Source: a virus
Taxonomy: Duplodnaviria; Heunggongvirae; Uroviricota; Caudoviricetes
Reading direction: 5' to 3' (one strand)
Virus record (IMG/VR): IMGVR_UViG_2718218127_000001
DNA length: 14,646 nt
Shown: one piece after another, positions 3,736-14,646 of the stretch
Layout of the letters: each line of letters begins with the position of its first letter
Numbering within the stretch: position 1 is the first letter of the stretch
Notes under the pieces: generated by a model
What the model was told of the DNA's origin: nothing
Database searches by the model: none
Seen by the model: only the letters and a program-made list of their open reading frames with translations
Translations under genes and position numbers: made by a program

Positions 3736-4086
3736 TCACGGCACAGACGAGTACCAGTAAAAGCCTGTTAGCCCGGCATCGCAGCGCTCACGATTAAGCA
3801 CACGTGGCGGGTTTTCTCTGGTCATCAACTCAAGCAAGGCATTGCTTCCCTGCGTCTCCAGTCGGTATTGCCTGTCGGTAGTGGTAATGGCATCCGGCAA
3901 TAACTTTATGGCGGCCTGGCTAAAGTCTCGCGGTGCGCCGTAAAATTGCGCATCAACAATATGAACCACATCGCCGTTAATCGTTGTCCGATAACGGTCT
4001 GGCTGTATAGTAAAGCCCCCACAATGGATAGCAGATAGTGCCGGTGCCGATGAGATCAGGACGGCTGCCAGAATGTATGGCTTCAT
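3736..4086 (-). CDS. hypothetical secreted protein, 116 aa
   Basis: Track ORF with ATG start and GGTGGGTGA upstream. The N-terminus MKPYILAAVLISSAPALSA looks like a Sec signal peptide. Two Cys residues. Its start overlaps the upstream stop as ATGA. Confidence 0.55.
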   Translation of the reverse strand: MKPYILAAVLISSAPALSAIHCGGFTIQPDRYRTTINGDVVHIVDAQFYGAPRDFSQAAIKLLPDAITTTDRQYRLETQGSNALLELMTRENPPRVLNRERCDAGLTGFYWYSSVP

Positions 4087-4724
4087 TCTTCACCCACCAA
4101 TTCATCCAGTTCAGCCAGCGTCATAGGCTTTGGTACAGGCTTGTCAATATCACCCATAATGCGCTGGAAGTTTCTGGCAGGCATATGGTTACGGTTCTCC
4201 AGTATTTTCGCCAGCGCGATAACATCCCACCATTTCAGGGCAATCAGCGCCTCAGCACGGGAAAGTGATATTCTCTGTATATCAGCATCCTCTCCACCAG
4301 CCACCCGGTATACCTCTGATAAATCACGAACATTTTTCATGTCTGCTTTCCCGGACGTTTCCATCAGTGCGTTAATATCATCCCCCGTATAGCGTGATTG
4401 CGCGACGATACCAGCCAGAGAGATAACCATATCCCGGCATACCTGGTCTATCAGACGTAATCTGGCGTCATCGTTCGAGAGGGTGTAAGACTTAACCTCA
4501 GCCACATTCCGTGGATAGTTGGCGTGCCATACCGCGACGGCTCCACACTCATCAACATCGCCGCTAAGGTAGGTTTTTGCCACTCGGTTATTACCCGATA
4601 ACGCAATTTCTACCTCCTGTATGCCGAAAAACCATGCGGCTATCGCATGACCTGCTTCGTGTATTGCGAGATGTCTGGGCCAGCGATAGCTGCCTAACTC
4701 GATAATGATGGGTTGCGTACTCAT
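4083..4724 (-). CDS. putative zinc metallopeptidase with an HEAGH motif (FtsH/M41-like active site), about 213 aa, no AAA+ or transmembrane region
   Basis: Track ORF 4083..4781. I prefer the internal ATG (MSTQPI...) because the longer form overlaps the SSB-like gene by 47 nt and the internal start has GAGAGGGAA upstream. The motif IHEAGHAIAAW is identical over seven residues to the FtsH zinc-binding signature. Confidence 0.5.
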   Translation of the reverse strand: MSTQPIIIELGSYRWPRHLAIHEAGHAIAAWFFGIQEVEIALSGNNRVAKTYLSGDVDECGAVAVWHANYPRNVAEVKSYTLSNDDARLRLIDQVCRDMVISLAGIVAQSRYTGDDINALMETSGKADMKNVRDLSEVYRVAGGEDADIQRISLSRAEALIALKWWDVIALAKILENRNHMPARNFQRIMGDIDKPVPKPMTLAELDELVGEE

Positions 4725-4734
4725 ATCTTCCCTC

Positions 4735-5196
4735 TCAGAATGGCGTTTCATCGTCGAATGGTGGGCGTTGGTCAAAATCATCAGGGGTATTATATAACTC
4801 CCATCCCGGCGCGGATTGTGTTGTGTGGCCCCTGCTGGCTCCGCTTGCTTTGACTGATTCGGCCCGCTTCCCGCCGGGGCGTACCGTTCTGGCGCTGATC
4901 ACGCTGTCGGCTACTACCTGATAACCTTGCTGTGTACCGCCATCCTTGCCCGTCCACTGATTGATCTGCATCGCTCCGGCAACACTGACTAAATCGCCTT
5001 TAACGTGTCCTGCCAGTGCGTCGGCCTGTTTGCCGAATGCCACCACGCCCAGCCAGAAAGTAACCTCTCCGCCCTCTGCTGTATGGCAGGGCAGTGCCAC
5101 CGCTAACCGTCCCATTGCCATGCTTGTACCGTTCGTTGTGGTACGGGTCTGGGGATCTGCCACCAGCCGCCCGTATGCTGAAATTTGTGCTGTCAT
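4735..5196 (-). CDS. single-stranded DNA-binding protein (SSB-like OB fold with acidic C-terminal tail), 153 aa
   Basis: Track ORF with ATG start and GAGGAA upstream. The pattern W..VVAFGK.A......KG..V.V.G.....W....G......VV parallels the E. coli SSB core, and the C-terminus ...PPFDDETPF resembles the SSB ...DFDDDIPF tail. Confidence 0.65.
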   Translation of the reverse strand: MTAQISAYGRLVADPQTRTTTNGTSMAMGRLAVALPCHTAEGGEVTFWLGVVAFGKQADALAGHVKGDLVSVAGAMQINQWTGKDGGTQQGYQVVADSVISARTVRPGGKRAESVKASGASRGHTTQSAPGWELYNTPDDFDQRPPFDDETPF

Positions 5197-5495
5197 AGAT
5201 ATTTCCTCATGTAGTCACTACCTCCGGGGATAATTTTCATTTCTTCCCTTAAAGGCCACTGCTCCGCCATTGCTGCGGTCGAGTGATTCCCGTCATCACG
5301 TCCGGCCTGTGCTGCCGTCCAGTGTGTTGCATATTCTGTAAATCCAATTTCTGCTGGCTGCCTCATCCAGTGGGCGATCATCCTCAAGGTCATTTGCAGG
5401 CTTTGGGTGTCGCCCTGTAATGCGCGTTTGTCAGTAAACCCCTTCAATGCTTCACGCTCCTGATAGGTCATTTTCTGGCTGGTTTCTGTATTCAT
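5193..5495 (-). CDS. hypothetical protein, 100 aa; first gene after the origin
   Basis: Track ORF with ATG start and GAGGTG 5 nt upstream. Its stop overlaps the SSB-like start as ATGA. Confidence 0.5.
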   Translation of the reverse strand: MNTETSQKMTYQEREALKGFTDKRALQGDTQSLQMTLRMIAHWMRQPAEIGFTEYATHWTAAQAGRDDGNHSTAAMAEQWPLREEMKIIPGGSDYMRKYL

Positions 5496-5548
5496 TGCCC
5501 ACCTCGTTATAAGCTACCCCCCCCATAGAATCTTTTTGGGGGTGTAAT

Positions 5549-5800
5549 ATCCCTACCAATCCCTACTAACTGGCTCAGGCCACGAATGGCAAGGCTTTCA
5601 GACTGGTAGACATTCAATTTTGTTGCCCTACATAACCCTACTTATCCCTACTAAATCACTTCAACGGCATTTTACTGCCTGTTTTATTTGGTAGGGATAA
5701 GTAGGGATAAGTAGGGATAAAAATATATATCCCTACCTAGTTTAAAGCCTTGCTACGTCTGGCCTCGTCTCGTTTTTAGTAGGGCAGTAGGGATAAGTGC
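5549..5800. repeat. iteron-type replication origin
   Basis: At least 11 copies of a TAGGGATAAG / CCCTAC core with 10-bp phasing: inverted-orientation copies near 5549-5566 and 5626-5651, three perfect tandem GTAGGGATAA units at 5691-5720, an AT-rich stretch AAAATATATAT, then further copies near 5731 and 5779-5796. Lies immediately 3' of the primase gene. Confidence 0.7.
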
Positions 5801-5813
5801 CGCCGTAAAAGTT

Positions 5814-8255
5814 TCAATCATCACTCTGCCCGCTCTCCACACCGTAAGCGCGTGGCATGAACTCCTCAGCCTTCTCGTTATAGCCAACGTTGGTTTGCGC
5901 TCTGCCGTTAATGCTTCTCGTCAGGTAGCTGGCTCGGTACTCTTTTGCTGCTGATTTTATGGCGCGTGAAAACTTATTGACGGAAAGCGGTTTACCCAAA
6001 CCGTGATACTCCATAAACGCCAGATAAAGATGATAAAGATACGTCCTCGGCTCTGGCTGGCCTGCCCATGTACCTCCGCCCATCATCATGCCTTTGGGTT
6101 CGTTCATGAAAAAAAGCGCCGCACACATATCGACAACCGGATCCGTGCCGCGTTTAACCTCTAGCGCCTCCTGCGAATCGCGCTGCTCTAGTAATAGTGC
6201 CTTTGCTTTGTTCTGGTCGGCAAAGGTGGTTAGCAGGTGGCGGATAATCACCGGGATTTCTCGCCTGATTTTTGCGGTTAAATCCGGGTCTTTGTCTGCG
6301 TCTGATACCGGGTTATTAAACGGGAATATCACGCGGCGGCGGGCAATGCCCCCGTTTCGCTCCGTGAATGTCATTGGCTCGTTATTGGTTGCCATAACAA
6401 CGGCATTTATCACGGTTGTGAACTGCTTTTCATATTTCCCATCAATCTCTACCGGATCGCCGCCCGTAATGGCTTTAATCCCCGCACCCTCTCCAACGTA
6501 GCGGGTCTGGTCAGGCATAATAATCAGGCTTTTCCCTACGAACTGCGCCCGTCCCCGTGCGGTGTCCAGCGTCATCATGCTACCGCTGGCGGTGTTGTGT
6601 TCACCTGCCAGCGTGGTTGCTATGCTGCTGAATACGGATTTCCCACTGCCGCCCTCGCCAGTTATCTCAATGAATAGCTGCCAGTCGTGACGCTTCGCCA
6701 GCACCATAAACAAGGCTGCTTTGATACGCTCGGCCTTATGATGGTCGCCAGCCGTTGCATGATTCAGCCAACGGGTAAAATTGGGGGCGCTGGTGGAAAT
6801 ATTCTCCCCCGGCGCTGGCGGGGTGTAGGTGATCCCATTGTGGTTCATCAGCCAGTTACCCGGCGAATGGGCGGAAAACGTCTGCGTAGCGAGGTCATAA
6901 ACGCCGTTATCAAAACCAATCAGATCCCCGCTCCGCTCACCAATTACCGGTATTTGCAGCTTCATGGTTGCGACAACCGATTTAATCCCTTTTTCGGTGT
7001 AGTGGGCTTCGTGCTCGTCGAAAATTGCCACCATAACCCTTTCTAATTCGCTGTCTGGTAGCTTCACCCATACGCCAGATTCGTAGCAGTAAACAGCGCC
7101 ACTATCAGGGTTGACCGCCAACATATCCCAGCGAGATGAAAGCAACCGCGCTTTCTGGCTGGCTGCCATTTGTGCAATATCTCCGACTTCGGCTTTACGG
7201 CGGGATTTACCGCCCACAATGGCCTGTAGTTGTGGTTTCACGGCTTCCCCCTGAATCTGGTACATCGAATCGTTAAACGCAGCCGTAGCGACTTCCAGCC
7301 CGTTTTGCTGGCGGTAGTCGTCCCAGTCGGCTTTGTAGTCTGTCGGCGGCAGCGCCACCCAGCCAGCCACGGATAAGGCGGCTTTCTCTGCGGCATCTTT
7401 GCCCGTGTTCGCCTGTTCGTCCTGCTGGTGGTCGTTATCTGCGGCAATGATAATTTGCGACTGCGGGTGTTTCCGGCGCATTACTCCGGCAACGTGGATC
7501 AGGTTCCCGGCGTCAATTGCCGCCACTGTAAGCGCGTCCGGGCGCATCAGGTGAACGGACAGGGCCGTCGCCAGCCCCTCGGCAATTAATACGCTCTGCG
7601 GCTGTTCTGGTGCGTTTACGGCGTGATATGCCCCGCGCTTTGCTGAACCTGTCAGGAGTCGCTTCTCTCCCTGCGGTGTAATGGTTTGCGCTGCTGCCAC
7701 TGCGCCGGATTCGTCCACCAGCTCCAGCAATAACGAACCATCCGGCATAACCGGATAGTTAAACCCGGTCAGCCCTTTTGATTGCAGGTAATCAGATTCT
7801 CCCTGTGTGGCACTCTGGCGCATTCCGGCATACAGACGGGCAAACGTAGCCCTTCGCTGCTCTGCATCCTCTGCTGCCTGTTTCTGGCGCTCCTGCTCAC
7901 GCTGCTGGCGGTCAGCTTCCAGTTGCTCTCTTCTATGGCTCGCTGCCACCGGGTCGGTTTGCGCTGCCCGGTAATCAATACCCAGCACATCAGCGGCAAG
8001 CTGTGCCGCCTCCGTAGTGTCGCAGTTGTTCACCTTCTTAATCAGGTCTAAACCGTCACCAGCGCCACACTGATTGCAGATAAAGCTACCGCGCCCGTTG
8101 TCGTCGAATCTGAAACGGTCTTTTCCACCACATGCAGGGCATGGAGAATGGCGGCGCGATGAATCAGGCACGTCGATAGACAATCCAGCCAGCACATAAG
8201 GCCAGCGCCCGGCGGCGGCACTGGTCACTTCGCGGATAAGGTCGATATTACGCAT
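5814..8255 (-). CDS. P4-alpha-like bifunctional DNA primase/helicase, 813 aa
   Basis: Track ORF with ATG start. N-terminal zinc ribbon CPACGGKDRFRFDD...FICNQCGAGDG, a central TOPRIM-like region, and a C-terminal NTPase with Walker A GEGGSGKS. Confidence 0.88.
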   Translation of the reverse strand: MRNIDLIREVTSAAAGRWPYVLAGLSIDVPDSSRRHSPCPACGGKDRFRFDDNGRGSFICNQCGAGDGLDLIKKVNNCDTTEAAQLAADVLGIDYRAAQTDPVAASHRREQLEADRQQREQERQKQAAEDAEQRRATFARLYAGMRQSATQGESDYLQSKGLTGFNYPVMPDGSLLLELVDESGAVAAAQTITPQGEKRLLTGSAKRGAYHAVNAPEQPQSVLIAEGLATALSVHLMRPDALTVAAIDAGNLIHVAGVMRRKHPQSQIIIAADNDHQQDEQANTGKDAAEKAALSVAGWVALPPTDYKADWDDYRQQNGLEVATAAFNDSMYQIQGEAVKPQLQAIVGGKSRRKAEVGDIAQMAASQKARLLSSRWDMLAVNPDSGAVYCYESGVWVKLPDSELERVMVAIFDEHEAHYTEKGIKSVVATMKLQIPVIGERSGDLIGFDNGVYDLATQTFSAHSPGNWLMNHNGITYTPPAPGENISTSAPNFTRWLNHATAGDHHKAERIKAALFMVLAKRHDWQLFIEITGEGGSGKSVFSSIATTLAGEHNTASGSMMTLDTARGRAQFVGKSLIIMPDQTRYVGEGAGIKAITGGDPVEIDGKYEKQFTTVINAVVMATNNEPMTFTERNGGIARRRVIFPFNNPVSDADKDPDLTAKIRREIPVIIRHLLTTFADQNKAKALLLEQRDSQEALEVKRGTDPVVDMCAALFFMNEPKGMMMGGGTWAGQPEPRTYLYHLYLAFMEYHGLGKPLSVNKFSRAIKSAAKEYRASYLTRSINGRAQTNVGYNEKAEEFMPRAYGVESGQSDD

Positions 8256-8589
8256 GGTTGCCTCCTGCCACGGTCGCGCCCATGTCTTTAACCATGCTTT
8301 GCCATATCTCGCGCCCGACGTCAGTCAATCCGTCCTTAGTGACGCAACGCTCAAGAAGCTCGACCCCCACGGTTTCCCACTGCGGGTAGGACACTTTCAT
8401 GGCTGCCAGTGTGTAGCTATCGATCAGGCTGCGAACGCCTTTTACTCCATTGACGATTTCCACACGGACGGCGAGGCCGTCCGCATCAACCATGAAATAG
8501 TCCCCGCCGCTGGTGGAGGTAATGTGGTTATACAGTGCCGACGCATATTTATTAGCCAGCGCATTCAGTCGGAAATTTTTAGTAATCAT
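8248..8589 (-). CDS. hypothetical protein, 113 aa
   Basis: Track ORF with ATG start and GAGGGG upstream. Overlaps the primase start by 8 nt. Confidence 0.55.
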   Translation of the reverse strand: MITKNFRLNALANKYASALYNHITSTSGGDYFMVDADGLAVRVEIVNGVKGVRSLIDSYTLAAMKVSYPQWETVGVELLERCVTKDGLTDVGREIWQSMVKDMGATVAGGNHA

Positions 8590-8597
8590 GTCGCCCC

Positions 8598-9224
8598 TCA
8601 GTGCGGCAGCGGCATTTCAGGCCAGCCGTTTTCATCCAGTTCAGCTATAAAGCTGTTGTGAAGTTCAGCAAGCGTTTCACGTCCGAACGGGGTAAGCTCG
8701 CCGCGCTCCGTATCCAGCATCGCCTTATAAAACACAATGGCTTTTTCCGTACCCTGTTCGACGCCGTATCGCTCAATCATTGCGCCCTCGATGTTGTTCG
8801 CCATCGCCAGCCGTTCAGCAAACGGGTAAATCACCATGCCCGCATTACCATTGGAGTAAATCGCCACCTGCGATGTTGTGCCGTCAGCCTCCGTGACGGA
8901 GGTTGTGCCGTTTTCGCGCTTCATTTCAGAAACGAACTTCGCAGCAATCAGCCAGCGCCACATAGTGACGTTATGCTGCGCGGTAAAGTCGAACCAGCCA
9001 CGCGCCCCGCCATCAGCAACGGCAAAATGAATGGCGTAGCCGATATCTGGCGTATCGTCGTACTCTCCCGCATCCAGACGGCTTACAGCGCTCTCATAGG
9101 TGATAATGGCTACATGCTCATACATCCCGGCATCATTGCGGGTCATGATGTTTACGCCGTGCGGTGTGGCTTCGGCGTGTAATAAGTCGGCATTTCCCGA
9201 TTTAATGGTCGGTGCGTTGCTCAT
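8598..9224 (-). CDS. hypothetical protein, 208 aa
   Basis: Track ORF with ATG start overlapping the upstream stop (ATGA). No domain recognised. Confidence 0.55.
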   Translation of the reverse strand: MSNAPTIKSGNADLLHAEATPHGVNIMTRNDAGMYEHVAIITYESAVSRLDAGEYDDTPDIGYAIHFAVADGGARGWFDFTAQHNVTMWRWLIAAKFVSEMKRENGTTSVTEADGTTSQVAIYSNGNAGMVIYPFAERLAMANNIEGAMIERYGVEQGTEKAIVFYKAMLDTERGELTPFGRETLAELHNSFIAELDENGWPEMPLPH

Positions 9225-9795: not shown

Positions 9796-9971
9796 GCTGC
9801 CACCTCACGAACGCGGGTAATCTGGATGTGGGAAAGGCGTTCATTTCTGGCCTGATTTAGCGCCTCAGCTTTGGCGCTGATCGCGCTGCGGGCGTCAACG
9901 ATATAAACGAACTCGACTAATTCGCCGCTCCGGGCGGTGGCGCATCCTGCAACACGGAAGTAATTAAGCAT
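9792..9971 (-). CDS. hypothetical small protein, about 59 aa from the internal ATG
   Basis: Track ORF 9792..10001 begins with TTG. The internal ATG (MLNYF...) has AGGGGG upstream and overlaps the preceding stop by 8 nt. Confidence 0.35.
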   Translation of the reverse strand: MLNYFRVAGCATARSGELVEFVYIVDARSAISAKAEALNQARNERLSHIQITRVREVAA

Positions 9972-10155
9972 GTGCGCCCCCTGTGCGAATACGTCCGGCA
10001 AAAAAGCAAACGTGATCCCGCGCCAGAATGCGGCGGGCTTCCTGCTCAGTCTCTGCGGCGATATGGTGAATTTTGGCGGTAATTGTCGGCATATCGCGGC
10101 GAACTGCTGCGATAATCCAGATAAATTGCGGTTTTTGGGTAGGGGTAGTAGCCAT
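9964..10155 (-). CDS. hypothetical small protein, 63 aa; first gene of the replication-module operon
   Basis: C-terminal part of the track's 250-aa GTG ORF. It has an ATG with a strong AAGGAGG 8 nt upstream (MATTPTQKPQ...). Confidence 0.45.
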   Translation of the reverse strand: MATTPTQKPQFIWIIAAVRRDMPTITAKIHHIAAETEQEARRILARDHVCFFAGRIRTGGAHA

Positions 10156-10182
10156 TATGGCAGCCTCCTTTGTGTTTAAGGA

Positions 10183-10221
10183 GTCACCGCCTGAGTTTCC
10201 ACGCTCTGAAATGGCGGTGAC
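10183..10221 (-). promoter_or_regulatory. stem-loop in the 5' leader of the replication-module operon
   Basis: Inverted repeat GTCACCGCC ... GGCGGTGAC (9-bp arms, about 21-nt loop). On the minus strand it is followed by TCCTT, which could pair with the AAGGAGG of the 63-aa gene. Confidence 0.3.
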
Positions 10222-10345
10222 GTTAGCAGGGGTGGAAATACCGGACACAAAGGAAACCGGCCTACGCGAACGTAGCCCCACTAACGCCACCATAGATACA
10301 GTACGGACGAGGCCGCTGATTTGATGTGCGTAGTGATCGGACACA

Positions 10346-10367
10346 AAAAAAGACGCTTTCGGCGTCT
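10346..10367 (-). terminator. putative rho-independent terminator on the minus strand
   Basis: Minus strand reads AGACGC-CGAAA-GCGTCT followed by TTTTTTT. It sits between the regulatory module and the replication module. Confidence 0.45.
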
Positions 10368-10654
10368 GTGTCGCCCTTAGTGTGTTCGGGTTTCCACGCC
10401 CGGTTGCTGATTTTGCAGCAACGCTTGGACTATAACAGCTTTTCTCTGCTAGGTGGTCATACCAGATAAAACCGTAACCCTTTAAGAGTTTTTCCTGTGC
10501 ACGGCTCACCATCTTTTTGTTGAGGGTAAGCGCCTCGCGTACTGGTAACGGAACTCCGGGCGCTGCGGTATCAATATCAGGTTTTGTAAGGTTGCAGATG
10601 TCAACTTTTGACAACATGCCAGCCAGATTAAAGGCTTCTTTCTGGGCGGCAGGT

Positions 10655-10837
10655 TCATTCAGTATCACGGCGCACCTCCACGAACTCATTAACGAATCTC
10701 TCCAAAGGCTGAACACATGGCGACTGATAGCCCTCGCGGTAAAAGGTCACTCGGTTATGCTCGACGCGCTGTACGGTCACTACAGCCCCGTGACTGTCCT
10801 TGTAACGGCTTCCCGGCATCGGATTATGGTTACGCAT
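10655..10837 (-). CDS. hypothetical small protein, 60 aa
   Basis: Track ORF with ATG start and GGAGGT 6 nt upstream. Overlaps the upstream stop by 8 nt. Confidence 0.5.
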   Translation of the reverse strand: MRNHNPMPGSRYKDSHGAVVTVQRVEHNRVTFYREGYQSPCVQPLERFVNEFVEVRRDTE

Positions 10838-11675: not shown

Positions 11676-12110
11676 TTAGGCGGCGGTGAGATTGTCCGGG
11701 TATAGGTTGAGAATGTCGGCAATTTCAGGCTGAGAAAGTCCCTGATAGCCGCCAGCGTCGGCGTTATGGTTCACAAGCCGAATAACTTTCAGAACGTCAC
11801 CGCGCCCGGTAAAGCGATAGCGTAAATGTGACCCTATCCCGTCGGGGTTCTTTTCGTCTATACGCTCAAGCTGAATATCAAGCCTGCGCTCTAACTCACT
11901 GGCGTAGTTCCTTCCAGACGAAAGGCGGCAATAACGCAGAATGTCGTTTTCTGTCCATCCCTCTACGCCAGTACGCAGCATATAGACGCGGGCGCGGTGT
12001 TTCTTTGGGGTTCGCTTAGGTACTTGTACCGGGCTGGTGGTCGGCGTAATATCAGACGTGCGAATATCTGAGTTAGCCGCCTGCTGTACGGGGCGGTTTT
12101 TCTTTTTCAT
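11676..12110 (-). CDS. hypothetical basic protein, 144 aa
   Basis: Track ORF. Its ATG overlaps the alpA stop (TAATG), so it is translationally coupled to alpA. Confidence 0.5.
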   Translation of the reverse strand: MKKKNRPVQQAANSDIRTSDITPTTSPVQVPKRTPKKHRARVYMLRTGVEGWTENDILRYCRLSSGRNYASELERRLDIQLERIDEKNPDGIGSHLRYRFTGRGDVLKVIRLVNHNADAGGYQGLSQPEIADILNLYPDNLTAA

Positions 12111-12313
12111 TACGCCACCTTTCCCCGGCGCTCCGCCAGCCAGTTGTGAATATCAGCCGCATCAAAGGCGGTAATCTTCTCGCCCAGCTTTACCGGACGT
12201 GGTAGTGAACCGTTTCTTACTTTACGGTCGATGGTGGATACACTAACGCCCAGCAATTCAGCCAGGCGAAAGCGTCTGATATAGCCTTTTGTAGGGATAG
12301 TGTCGATGTTCAT
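12110..12313 (-). CDS. alpA: AlpA-family (Vis/excisionase-like) HTH transcriptional regulator, 67 aa
   Basis: Track ORF with ATG start and AAGAGG upstream. The helix-turn-helix LAELLGVSVSTIDRKVRNG and its small size and position next to a P4-type integrase are typical of AlpA/Vis. Confidence 0.72.
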   Translation of the reverse strand: MNIDTIPTKGYIRRFRLAELLGVSVSTIDRKVRNGSLPRPVKLGEKITAFDAADIHNWLAERRGKVA

Positions 12314-13386: not shown

Positions 13387-14646
13387 TTACTTCGCCTTTC
13401 TCAGCGGTGTAACGTTGTATTCCTGCCCCTGTTCCAGTGCCACCAGCAATCCCGCCCACTGTGTTAACGCGGCCCGGCGTTCATCAAAGTATTGGTGGCG
13501 GTTATAGATACCCTCCACGCCTTTAATTTTGTGGTTGAGGCATCTTTCAGCCACTACGGGATCAACGCCCAGCGCGGCTAAATGGGTGCGGGCTGTGCGC
13601 CGGAAGTCGTGAATAGTGAAATTCGGCACGTCCGGCATTTCAGCGCGAACCTTAGCCAGTGCTACGGGTAAAGTGCTTTCCTGAATATGTGGGATCATGC
13701 GGTTTTGCATCTTTCTGGCTGGCAGTACCCATGCGCTGTTGCATGAGAACGTTTTAAGCTCTCTCAGCCATTCGACGGCTGGCGGTGCTAATGGAATGTC
13801 TATAGCGTCGCCGTTTTTGCTGCGTTCCTCTGGCAAGCGCCATACGGCTTTATCAAAATCGAACTCCTCCCAGCGGGCGGCGCATAACTCCATTTTGCGG
13901 ACGCATAACGCTAACAGTAATTTGAACGTGATTTCGTTCTGGCGACTGAATCCCTTAGCCGTGCGCATGGCTTTGAATAGCTGGATTAACTCATCGCGGG
14001 TTAACCAGCGGTCACGGGCAACTTCTTTCCCTCCAGCGTCGGCAACCTCAAAGGCTGAACACGGGTTAATCTCCAGTGCGTGCCGCTTAATGCCGTAGTC
14101 AAATATGCGGCGTGTCCAGCGCAGAACGTCCGTTGCTATGGTCGGCGCTCCACGGTCAACAATACCTTTCAGCATGTCATCGATATGGCGCGGCTTCACG
14201 TCCTCCACCTTCATGCTGCCAATGCAGGGGTTTATATCTTTGTCGATACGGCGGCGGAGTATATCGGGGTGCTTCCAGCGCGGAAGGATCTGACGCTCAA
14301 AGTATTCAGCGGCAAGCTCTGAAACGCGCATAGCGTTCTTCTCTGCTTCCATCTTCGCCAGTGCTTCGGTTTTGCGCCTCTGCTTCTCTCCTGCAACGTC
14401 ATAGCCCAGCGCAACGCGAGCCGATAGCTCTTTGGCTGTCTCTCTGGCCTTTGATAGTGATAGCTCGGCATATGAGCCAATCAGCATGGCGCGGGGTTTC
14501 CCTGCGAATTTATAGCGGAATCGCCAGACGGGGGTCTGGTAGTTTTCGCGGTATGAAAGATAAAGCCCGTTACCGTCAGAGCGTCCCTCGAATCGCTCCC
14601 CGGCCTTTATCCATGCGCGGATCTGCATGTCTGTGAGTTTTGGCAT
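13387..14646 (-). CDS. int: P4-type tyrosine integrase, 419 aa; start codon at the window edge
   Basis: Track ORF with ATG at 14644-14646. N-terminal arm-binding-like region (GLYLSYRENYQTPVWRFRYKF) and a C-terminal catalytic region with the HDFRRT...H..Y tyrosine-recombinase pattern. Confidence 0.9.
   Translation of the reverse strand: MPKLTDMQIRAWIKAGERFEGRSDGNGLYLSYRENYQTPVWRFRYKFAGKPRAMLIGSYAELSLSKARETAKELSARVALGYDVAGEKQRRKTEALAKMEAEKNAMRVSELAAEYFERQILPRWKHPDILRRRIDKDINPCIGSMKVEDVKPRHIDDMLKGIVDRGAPTIATDVLRWTRRIFDYGIKRHALEINPCSAFEVADAGGKEVARDRWLTRDELIQLFKAMRTAKGFSRQNEITFKLLLALCVRKMELCAARWEEFDFDKAVWRLPEERSKNGDAIDIPLAPPAVEWLRELKTFSCNSAWVLPARKMQNRMIPHIQESTLPVALAKVRAEMPDVPNFTIHDFRRTARTHLAALGVDPVVAERCLNHKIKGVEGIYNRHQYFDERRAALTQWAGLLVALEQGQEYNVTPLRKAK

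Follow-up and report, generated by a model that had tools for sequence, protein, structure and literature searches.

A probable PICI-type replication origin with a mirrored iteron array downstream of the primase-helicase gene of an Escherichia coli island

In this work we ask what role is played by a repeat-filled 318-bp gap that separates a primase-helicase gene from the next gene in a 14,646-nt stretch of DNA (IMG/VR record IMGVR_UViG_2718218127_000001; hereafter the window). A sequence-only reading of the window had proposed an iteron-type origin immediately 3' of the primase gene, and our comparisons bear this out: the position and anatomy of the array and the kind of initiator encoded beside it match those of PICI-type origins, and its repeats stand in register with those of the tested EcCICFT073 origin. 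We put the probability that the gap is the single vegetative origin of a PICI integrated at the E. coli yicC-dinD site at roughly 0.85, an estimate based on sequence comparison. The window origin adds a member to a known kind of origin, and the new part is its repeat word; since origins of this kind were described and tested in 2018, the find will be unsurprising to a specialist.

A mirrored array of short iterons

Bounded by the primase stop codon (5814-5816, minus strand) on one side and by a 100-aa gene on the other, the array lies in a region where all long ORFs are on the minus strand, and its first iteron follows the stop codon by 17 nt (Table 1). About 11 copies of a 10-bp phased GTAGGG/CCCTAC motif had been noted here, and a count returned eleven cores between 5551 and 5792, compared with three in the other 14.4 kb of the window (6534, 10139 and 12291). 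Among 200 shuffles of the window, which held 4.28 GTAGGG copies on average, none (0/200) reached the 14 copies found on the two strands; these figures imply about 0.07 expected copies in the 242 bp of the array, so that by our own calculation the Poisson probability of at least eleven is about 1e-20. Read on the plus strand, CCCTAC starts at 5551, 5561, 5626, 5636, 5646 and 5731 and GTAGGG at 5691, 5701, 5711, 5779 and 5787, with 10 bp from copy to copy between neighbours, the 5779/5787 pair (8 bp) being the exception. The three perfect tandem units described at 5691-5720 are present, each reading GTAGGGATAA, and two further perfect copies were found at 5642-5651 (minus strand) and 5787-5796.

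A degenerate copy, GTAGAC at 5606-5611, brings the number to twelve, because this variant occupies position +203 from the primase stop, where relatives (L028, L036 and L004) have a full iteron in minus orientation. Counted from the primase stop, with signs for orientation and the degenerate copy in parentheses, the cores lie at 22-, 30-, 78+, 98-, 108-, 118-, 163+, 173+, 183+, (203-), 248+ and 258+. They form a mirror of the plan A(2) B(1) C(3), C'(3) B'(1) A'(2), with six sites in each arm. The best centre of symmetry falls at 5671.0, where self-complementarity over +/-124 nt reaches 57%, compared with 39% at the second-best centre, and an 80-nt imperfect inverted repeat was detected independently in the same region. 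The earlier description of two opposed clusters was right about the opposed arms; it was incomplete in that the array is a dyad with a twelfth, degenerate copy. The AT-rich stretch described inside the array was recovered as well, the GC content being 32-40% across 5600-5760 versus about 50% in the flanks. Away from the array, lone 9/10 matches to the iteron occur at 12291-12300, at the 5' end of alpA (GTAGGGATAG), and at 6530-6539, within the primase gene (GTAGGGAAAA); by our estimate, chance would supply about one such match.

Table 1. Coordinates of the island genes, iterons and other elements discussed in the text
Feature	Position	Strand	Remark
dinD, chromosomal gene	1-837
ssb, single-strand DNA-binding protein	4735-5196	-	Pfam SSB E=1.1e-14; EcCICFT073 synteny
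Hypothetical gene (100 aa), directly after the origin	5193-5495	-	weak phrog_4935 match (E=2.6e-4), sole family match
Whole intergenic (putative origin) region	5496-5813		primase stop to next gene start
C8-N13-G5 inverted repeat CCCCCCCCATAGAATCTTTTTGGGGG	5517-5542		just upstream of the ribosome-binding site of the 100-aa gene
Iteron pair A'	5547-5566	-	GTAGGGATTG and GTAGGGATAT
Non-iteron motif CTGAAAGCC	5593-5601	-	just after iteron B'
Degenerate iteron B'	5606-5615	+	GTAGACATTC; mirror partner of B; full GTAGGG copy in relatives
Iteron triplet C'	5622-5651	-	GTAGGGATAA, GTAGGGTTAT and GTAGGGCAAC
Central spacer, 39 bp	5652-5690		67% A+T; holds the dyad centre 5671; candidate melting site
Iteron triplet C	5691-5720	+	three perfect GTAGGGATAA units
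Pure A+T tract, 14 bp	5717-5730		ATAAAAATATATAT; between B and C; other candidate melting site
Single iteron B	5727-5736	-	GTAGGGATAT; orientation opposite to its neighbours
Iteron pair A	5779-5796	+	GTAGGGCAGT and GTAGGGATAA, 8 bp apart
P4-alpha-like primase-helicase (Pri-Rep), 813 aa	5814-8255	-	presumed initiator; Pfam, NCBIfam and structure matches
C-terminal domain of the primase, aa 696-813	5817-6170	-	presumed iteron-binding winged helix; 1KA8 homology
ORF (250 aa) with Ash-family domain and C-terminal Icd-like cell-division-inhibitor domain	9964-10716
alpA, AlpA-type regulator	12110-12313	-
int, tyrosine integrase with arm-binding domain	13387-14646	-

The island and its presumed initiator

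The genes of the window follow one another on one strand in the order int, alpA, antA (AntA), icd, primase, array and ssb, and the order int, alpA and pri-rep with a single direction of transcription is that of Gram-negative PICIs. The window integrase is 86% identical to the integrase of EcCIRM13514, a published PICI at yicC-dinD. This likeness and the presence of dinD identify the window as an E. coli PICI inserted at that site. A search of the window for the 12-bp att core given in the literature, GAGCAGATTCAA, was negative. At 95% identity or more, the origin region was found in 76 of 5426 complete E. coli genomes (about 1.4%), always in the chromosome. A megablast of positions 4000-9000 against a phage collection gave no match, and a literature search for the iteron word returned papers on the I-SceI site alone, because TAGGGATAA is the start of that site.

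In strain E41 (L001, 7135-9872), a near-identical replication module is joined to other cargo, consisting of a DUF4297-domain protein and a 550-aa hypothetical protein that are possibly a defence pair. The E41 island has a shorter integrase and occupies another chromosomal site.

The 813-aa primase matches the Pfam families Zn_Ribbon_Prim, Toprim_3, D5_N, DUF5906 (SF3 helicase) and, at its C-terminus, Pox_D5, as well as the NCBIfam model TIGR01613 for P4-family primases. Its Zn-ribbon, Toprim, SF3-helicase and Pox_D5 domains are those expected of the P4-alpha type, a likeness for which we take the domain order of P4 alpha itself as the basis. Residues 387-649 match the SaPI5 PriRep helicase (7OLA, E=2.5e-11), and residues 360-800, spanning the helicase and C-terminal part, share 55% identity with the Pri-Rep of EcCICFT073. 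Towards the C-terminus, residues 704-796 align to a 100-residue C-terminal fragment of P4 alpha (PDB 1KA8, E=4e-8), which we take to be its origin-binding domain, and residues 696-813 are presumed on this homology to form a winged helix. Structure prediction added no support here: the full-length AlphaFold model has pLDDT below 50 over most of residues 480-813, and a model of the C-terminal domain (mean pLDDT 58.8) returned nothing below E=2 in a Foldseek search against the PDB. By homology, the primase would be an SF3 helicase initiator with a C-terminal iteron-binding winged helix, as characterizes PICIs.

Comparison with PICI, P4 and plasmid origins

Origins of Gram-negative PICIs are described as two iteron sets with an AT-rich region between them, immediately 3' of the gene for the initiator (PMC6092414). 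The gap examined here shares each of these features, being positioned 3' of pri-rep, with iterons that fall within the range of 6-12, in two opposed sets with an AT-rich region between them. The closest tested counterpart is EcCICFT073, in which a pri-ori plasmid was maintained and its delta-ori and delta-pri versions were not (Fillol-Salom et al. 2018, ISME J, PMC6092414). As in the window, its genes run on one strand, in the order int, alpA, icd, small genes, primase, a gap of about 290 bp, a small gene, ssb and perC, so that its origin too sits directly 3' of pri-rep and ahead of a small gene and ssb. Its cores, read as GGTAGAYA in the CFT073 genome, lie at 17-, 26-, 73+, 94-, 105-, 114-, 146+, 157+, 178-, 225+ and 234+ from the primase stop, and the two arrays, of eleven to twelve short iterons each, match in order, orientation and spacing. 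The islands differ in attachment site and in iteron word (GGTAGAYA versus GTAGGGATA), and the EcCICFT073 initiator is a protein of 584 aa that is not alignable with the Zn-ribbon and Toprim part (aa 1-359) of the window primase.

A second E. coli island, EcCIRM13514, shares with the window both the yicC-dinD site and the layout of the array after the primase gene, whereas its primase has 607 aa with a C-terminal domain only 30% identical and its iterons use the P4 word TGTTCACC. Since the integrases of these islands are alike and their primases and iterons are not, the replication module has been swapped between islands sharing an integration module. Across the published E. coli PICI modules of CFT073, ATCC 25922, RM13514 and 042 (a comparison of four islands, with EcCIED1a outside it), both initiator length and iteron word differ from those of the window.

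More distant parallels are found in the SaPIs, in which Rep is an SF3 helicase that loads itself and binds the iterons through a winged helix at its C-terminus (Qiao et al. 2022, PMC9371898). In their origins, 6-12 iterons follow rep directly, as two opposed sets on either side of an AT-rich centre (PMC9371898). The window resembles these systems in its SF3 initiator, with a helicase matching 7OLA, and in the opposed iteron sets after the initiator ORF; it differs from them in that the protein kinship is distant and that the SaPIs are Gram-positive elements with divergent regulatory genes and iterons of 5-6 bp with other words. Classical iteron plasmids (pSC101, R6K, RK2, F and P1) likewise have initiator repeats beside an AT-rich region and a winged-helix initiator, but their repeats are direct and 17-22 bp long, their initiators are not helicases, and they require DnaA boxes and often IHF sites. 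The gap does not fit this class: its 10-bp units are mirrored, and neither a DnaA box (at most one mismatch) nor an IHF consensus was found in it (5496-5813).

The sequence-only reading had likened the placement of the array to that in P4-type replicons as well as in PICIs. For PICIs the analogy holds in full, whereas for P4 it holds for crr, because the neighbour of the alpha gene is not ori: in the GenBank record (NC_001609), crr, with ten type 1 repeats, lies directly 3' of alpha, and the annotated ori lies upstream of alpha, about 2.1 kb from its start and about 4.5 kb from crr. P4 is like the window in the homologous C-terminus of its initiator (1KA8) and in having iterons clustered directly after the initiator gene. 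It is unlike the window in requiring two cis sites, ori and crr, against the one cluster of the island, and in that crr is built of two 120-bp direct repeats while the window array is a dyad. The crr units and the right arm of the origins compared here nevertheless have in common, in this order, a (-) iteron, CTGAAA and two (+) iterons. A further claim, that the iteron differs from the P4 repeats, is correct for the window word GTAGGGATAA: the P4 repeats contain GTGAAC, and the array is free of type I iterons of TGTTCACC sequence. It does not extend to the wider family, since the P4 word is used by some close primase relatives and by EcCIRM13514. Among the window ORFs scanned, no Pfam or PHROG match was found to the capsid-size or helper-control proteins of P4.

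The arrangement in P4 gives rise to an alternative in which the array would be a crr-like helper site, acting in cis by looping on a separate island origin at which synthesis starts. That the P4 cluster at the 3' end of alpha is crr, with the annotated origin about 4.5 kb off, speaks for such a role, as does the resemblance of the crr units to the right arm of these origins. Against it, no second cluster of the iteron word was found in the 14.6-kb window, which extends from int to dinD, in 28.5 kb around the E41 island (locus L001), or in the +/-4 kb flanks of 18 relatives from the genome collection; furthermore, a pri-ori fragment of EcCICFT073 with a matching layout was enough for plasmid maintenance. 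We consider a helper role highly unlikely and favour a single-site PICI-type origin, because the window and the E41 locus have a single cluster each and the flanks of the relatives show no further one.

Iteron word, C-terminal domain and the function of the array

The sequence-only reading had expected the primase to have its own origin specificity and proposed a comparison of iterons across homologous primases. We carried out this comparison on 44 loci, comprising the window, 40 relatives from genome and viral collections, P4, EcCICFT073 and EcCIRM13514. A repeat array was found just after the primase stop in 43 of the 44, L007 being the exception, and in position-by-position mapping 24 representatives follow the plan of the window, P4 excepted. 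The word itself varies: GTAGGGATA in the group of the window, GTAGACGTA in a Klebsiella-type group (L029-L037 and L045), GGTAGAYA in CFT073, GGTAGAGA in L005, GGTAGGGTT in L013 and L044, the P4 word GGTGAACA in L006, L016, L018, L019, L038, RM13514 and P4, and CTGAAYA in a Yersinia group.

Comparisons within the primase indicate that the iteron word tracks the C-terminal domain and not the helicase domain. Two relatives with the P4 word (L016 and L038) share 81% identity with the window in the helicase and 33% in the C-terminal domain, whereas three with the window word GTAGGGATA (L021, L034 and L039) share 81-82% and 90-92%, respectively. The L029 group, in which the word is GTAGACGTA, is 88% identical in the helicase and 66% identical over aa 755-792, a segment that varies together with the iteron word across the relatives, although the sequences are related and the number of independent word changes is small, perhaps five to seven. 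Between the window and L016, a Tatumella-type island, DNA homology is interrupted from 6166, near aa 697, to 5495, so the C-terminal domain and the origin were replaced together. Throughout, the layout was kept while the word changed with the C-terminal domain: the origins of five word classes can be aligned over their full length with a mean column identity of 62%, each iteron being replaced in register. The expectation of a primase with its own origin specificity is thereby supported across the 44 loci, insofar as specificity can be read from sequence. Within the GTAGGG class, core hexamers are conserved at 92% against 66% for spacers, figures obtained on related sequences in an alignment anchored on the repeats.

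Conserved elements other than iterons were also identified in the gap. The motif CTGAAAGCC recurs without mismatch in three classes of origin (GTAGGG, GTAGACG and GGTAGAYA, the last of which includes the tested EcCICFT073 origin), each time at an equivalent distance from the primase stop (+187 to +217), and it occurs on the other strand in origins of the GGTGAACA class. A GGCCAG element recurs in the spacer that mirrors the one holding CTGAAAGCC, and the P4 crr units have CTGAAAT at a similar place. The C8-N13-G5 inverted repeat has a counterpart, CCCCCAAAAAGATT...GGGGGG, in other iteron classes, and might be either a part of the origin or a control element for the downstream gene. ORFs in the gap are limited to 21-44 aa and are without support, and an Rfam scan of the region gave microRNA-hairpin matches only (20-33 bits, against gathering scores of 76-100), which we ascribe to the palindrome.

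The second of these elements bears on another alternative, in which the repeats would serve mainly as operators for the 100-aa gene, ssb and the genes beyond, or in copy-number handcuffing, and not as an initiation site. The array does lie directly upstream of the next gene, the conserved C/G inverted repeat abuts the ribosome-binding site of that gene, and plasmid iterons commonly double as regulatory sites. Against a purely regulatory function, no sigma-70 promoter or intrinsic terminator consensus was found in a scan of 5150-6100, all genes share one strand in the manner of an operon, and the layout of the array is that of a tested origin; regulation could, moreover, coexist with origin function without replacing it. 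An operator role to the exclusion of initiation accordingly seems very improbable. A role of the array in packaging or recombination, or as some other cis site or a decaying repeat with no present function, is barely credible. In favour of such a role, every PICI should have a cos or pac site, and ORF family scans and a cosN search revealed neither a cos site nor a packaging gene in the window. Against it, a lambda-type cosN sequence is absent, the GTAGGG-class cores are far better kept than the spacers, and the terminase of a helper phage or the integrase would not be expected to read a site whose layout stays constant while its word changes together with the C-terminal domain of the primase.

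Returning to the array as a vegetative origin, a mechanism can be proposed by analogy. The mode of action of P4 alpha is well established and serves as one of our two models. On the basis of alpha and of the SaPI Reps (PMC9371898), the 813-aa primase-helicase would bind the roughly 10-bp GTAGGGATAA iterons through its C-terminal winged helix, and SF3 helicase rings would assemble on both mirror arms, with about one helical turn between neighbouring sites. The AT-rich centre would then melt, either in the spacer at 5652-5690 or in the tract at 5717-5730. This predicted location is uncertain, because the central spacer has an A+T content of only 67% and the AT-richest tract occupies different spacers in different members: a TATATAT-rich tract is found at the B-C position in the GTAGGG, GTAGACG and GGTAGAG classes, while in EcCICFT073 and EcCIRM13514 the part richest in A+T is the A-B spacer, unlike in the window, where it lies between B and C and at the centre. 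The Toprim domain of the primase would subsequently lay primers for a host polymerase to take over, without involvement of host DnaA or IHF sites; the island encodes an SSB of its own just downstream.

A broader and more doubtful reading is that this primase family constitutes a natural library of mutually orthogonal initiator-origin pairs. Its parts are that the C-terminal domain and the origin may travel as a cassette, with breakpoints near aa 697 and at the next gene start; that all twelve iterons may change in step with a few residues in aa 755-792, which we tentatively take for the recognition helix and wing; that CTGAAAGCC, conserved irrespective of the iteron word, may be needed in cis in its own right, perhaps to signal priming or loading; and that P4 crr may be a tandem-duplicated half of an ancestral origin. 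Taken as a whole, with the cassette, the CTGAAAGCC element and the crr relationship included, we regard this reading as unlikely; if true, several satellites, including P4, could share a cell without competing for an initiator.

For the island itself, the array would show where replication of the PICI starts and where its initiator probably makes contact, which should help in the annotation and engineering of such islands. The occurrence of closely related primases with different words on one origin scaffold amounts to a natural domain-swap set, which could be used to study how winged-helix initiators read their sites and whether co-resident satellites escape replication cross-talk. The most useful by-product of this work is the collection of naturally occurring combinations of C-terminal domain and iteron word.

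Along much of the array in Klebsiella-type origins (L029-L035, about 330 nt after the primase stop, and L048, 15649-15973), GTAGACGTA and GTAGAGGTA alternate. The one locus with no array downstream, from Serratia fonticola (L007, 6415-7800), has an intact-looking primase with a C-terminal domain of 54% identity, and could be a decayed island or have its origin elsewhere. L048 is a 22.9-kb circular sequence deposited as K. pneumoniae 'plasmid unnamed1' (NZ_CP033626.1) and represents a whole island of this primase family, with a GTAGACG/GTAGAGG array and no other typed replicon. Its first 200 nt are repeated at 18205 and its annotation has a duplicated gene set, which suggests that the true circle is about 18.2 kb and that the first 4.6 kb or so were duplicated in assembly. 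Such a circle agrees with episomal replication, and could also be an excised or misassembled island. L048 additionally carries a gene for a tape measure protein.
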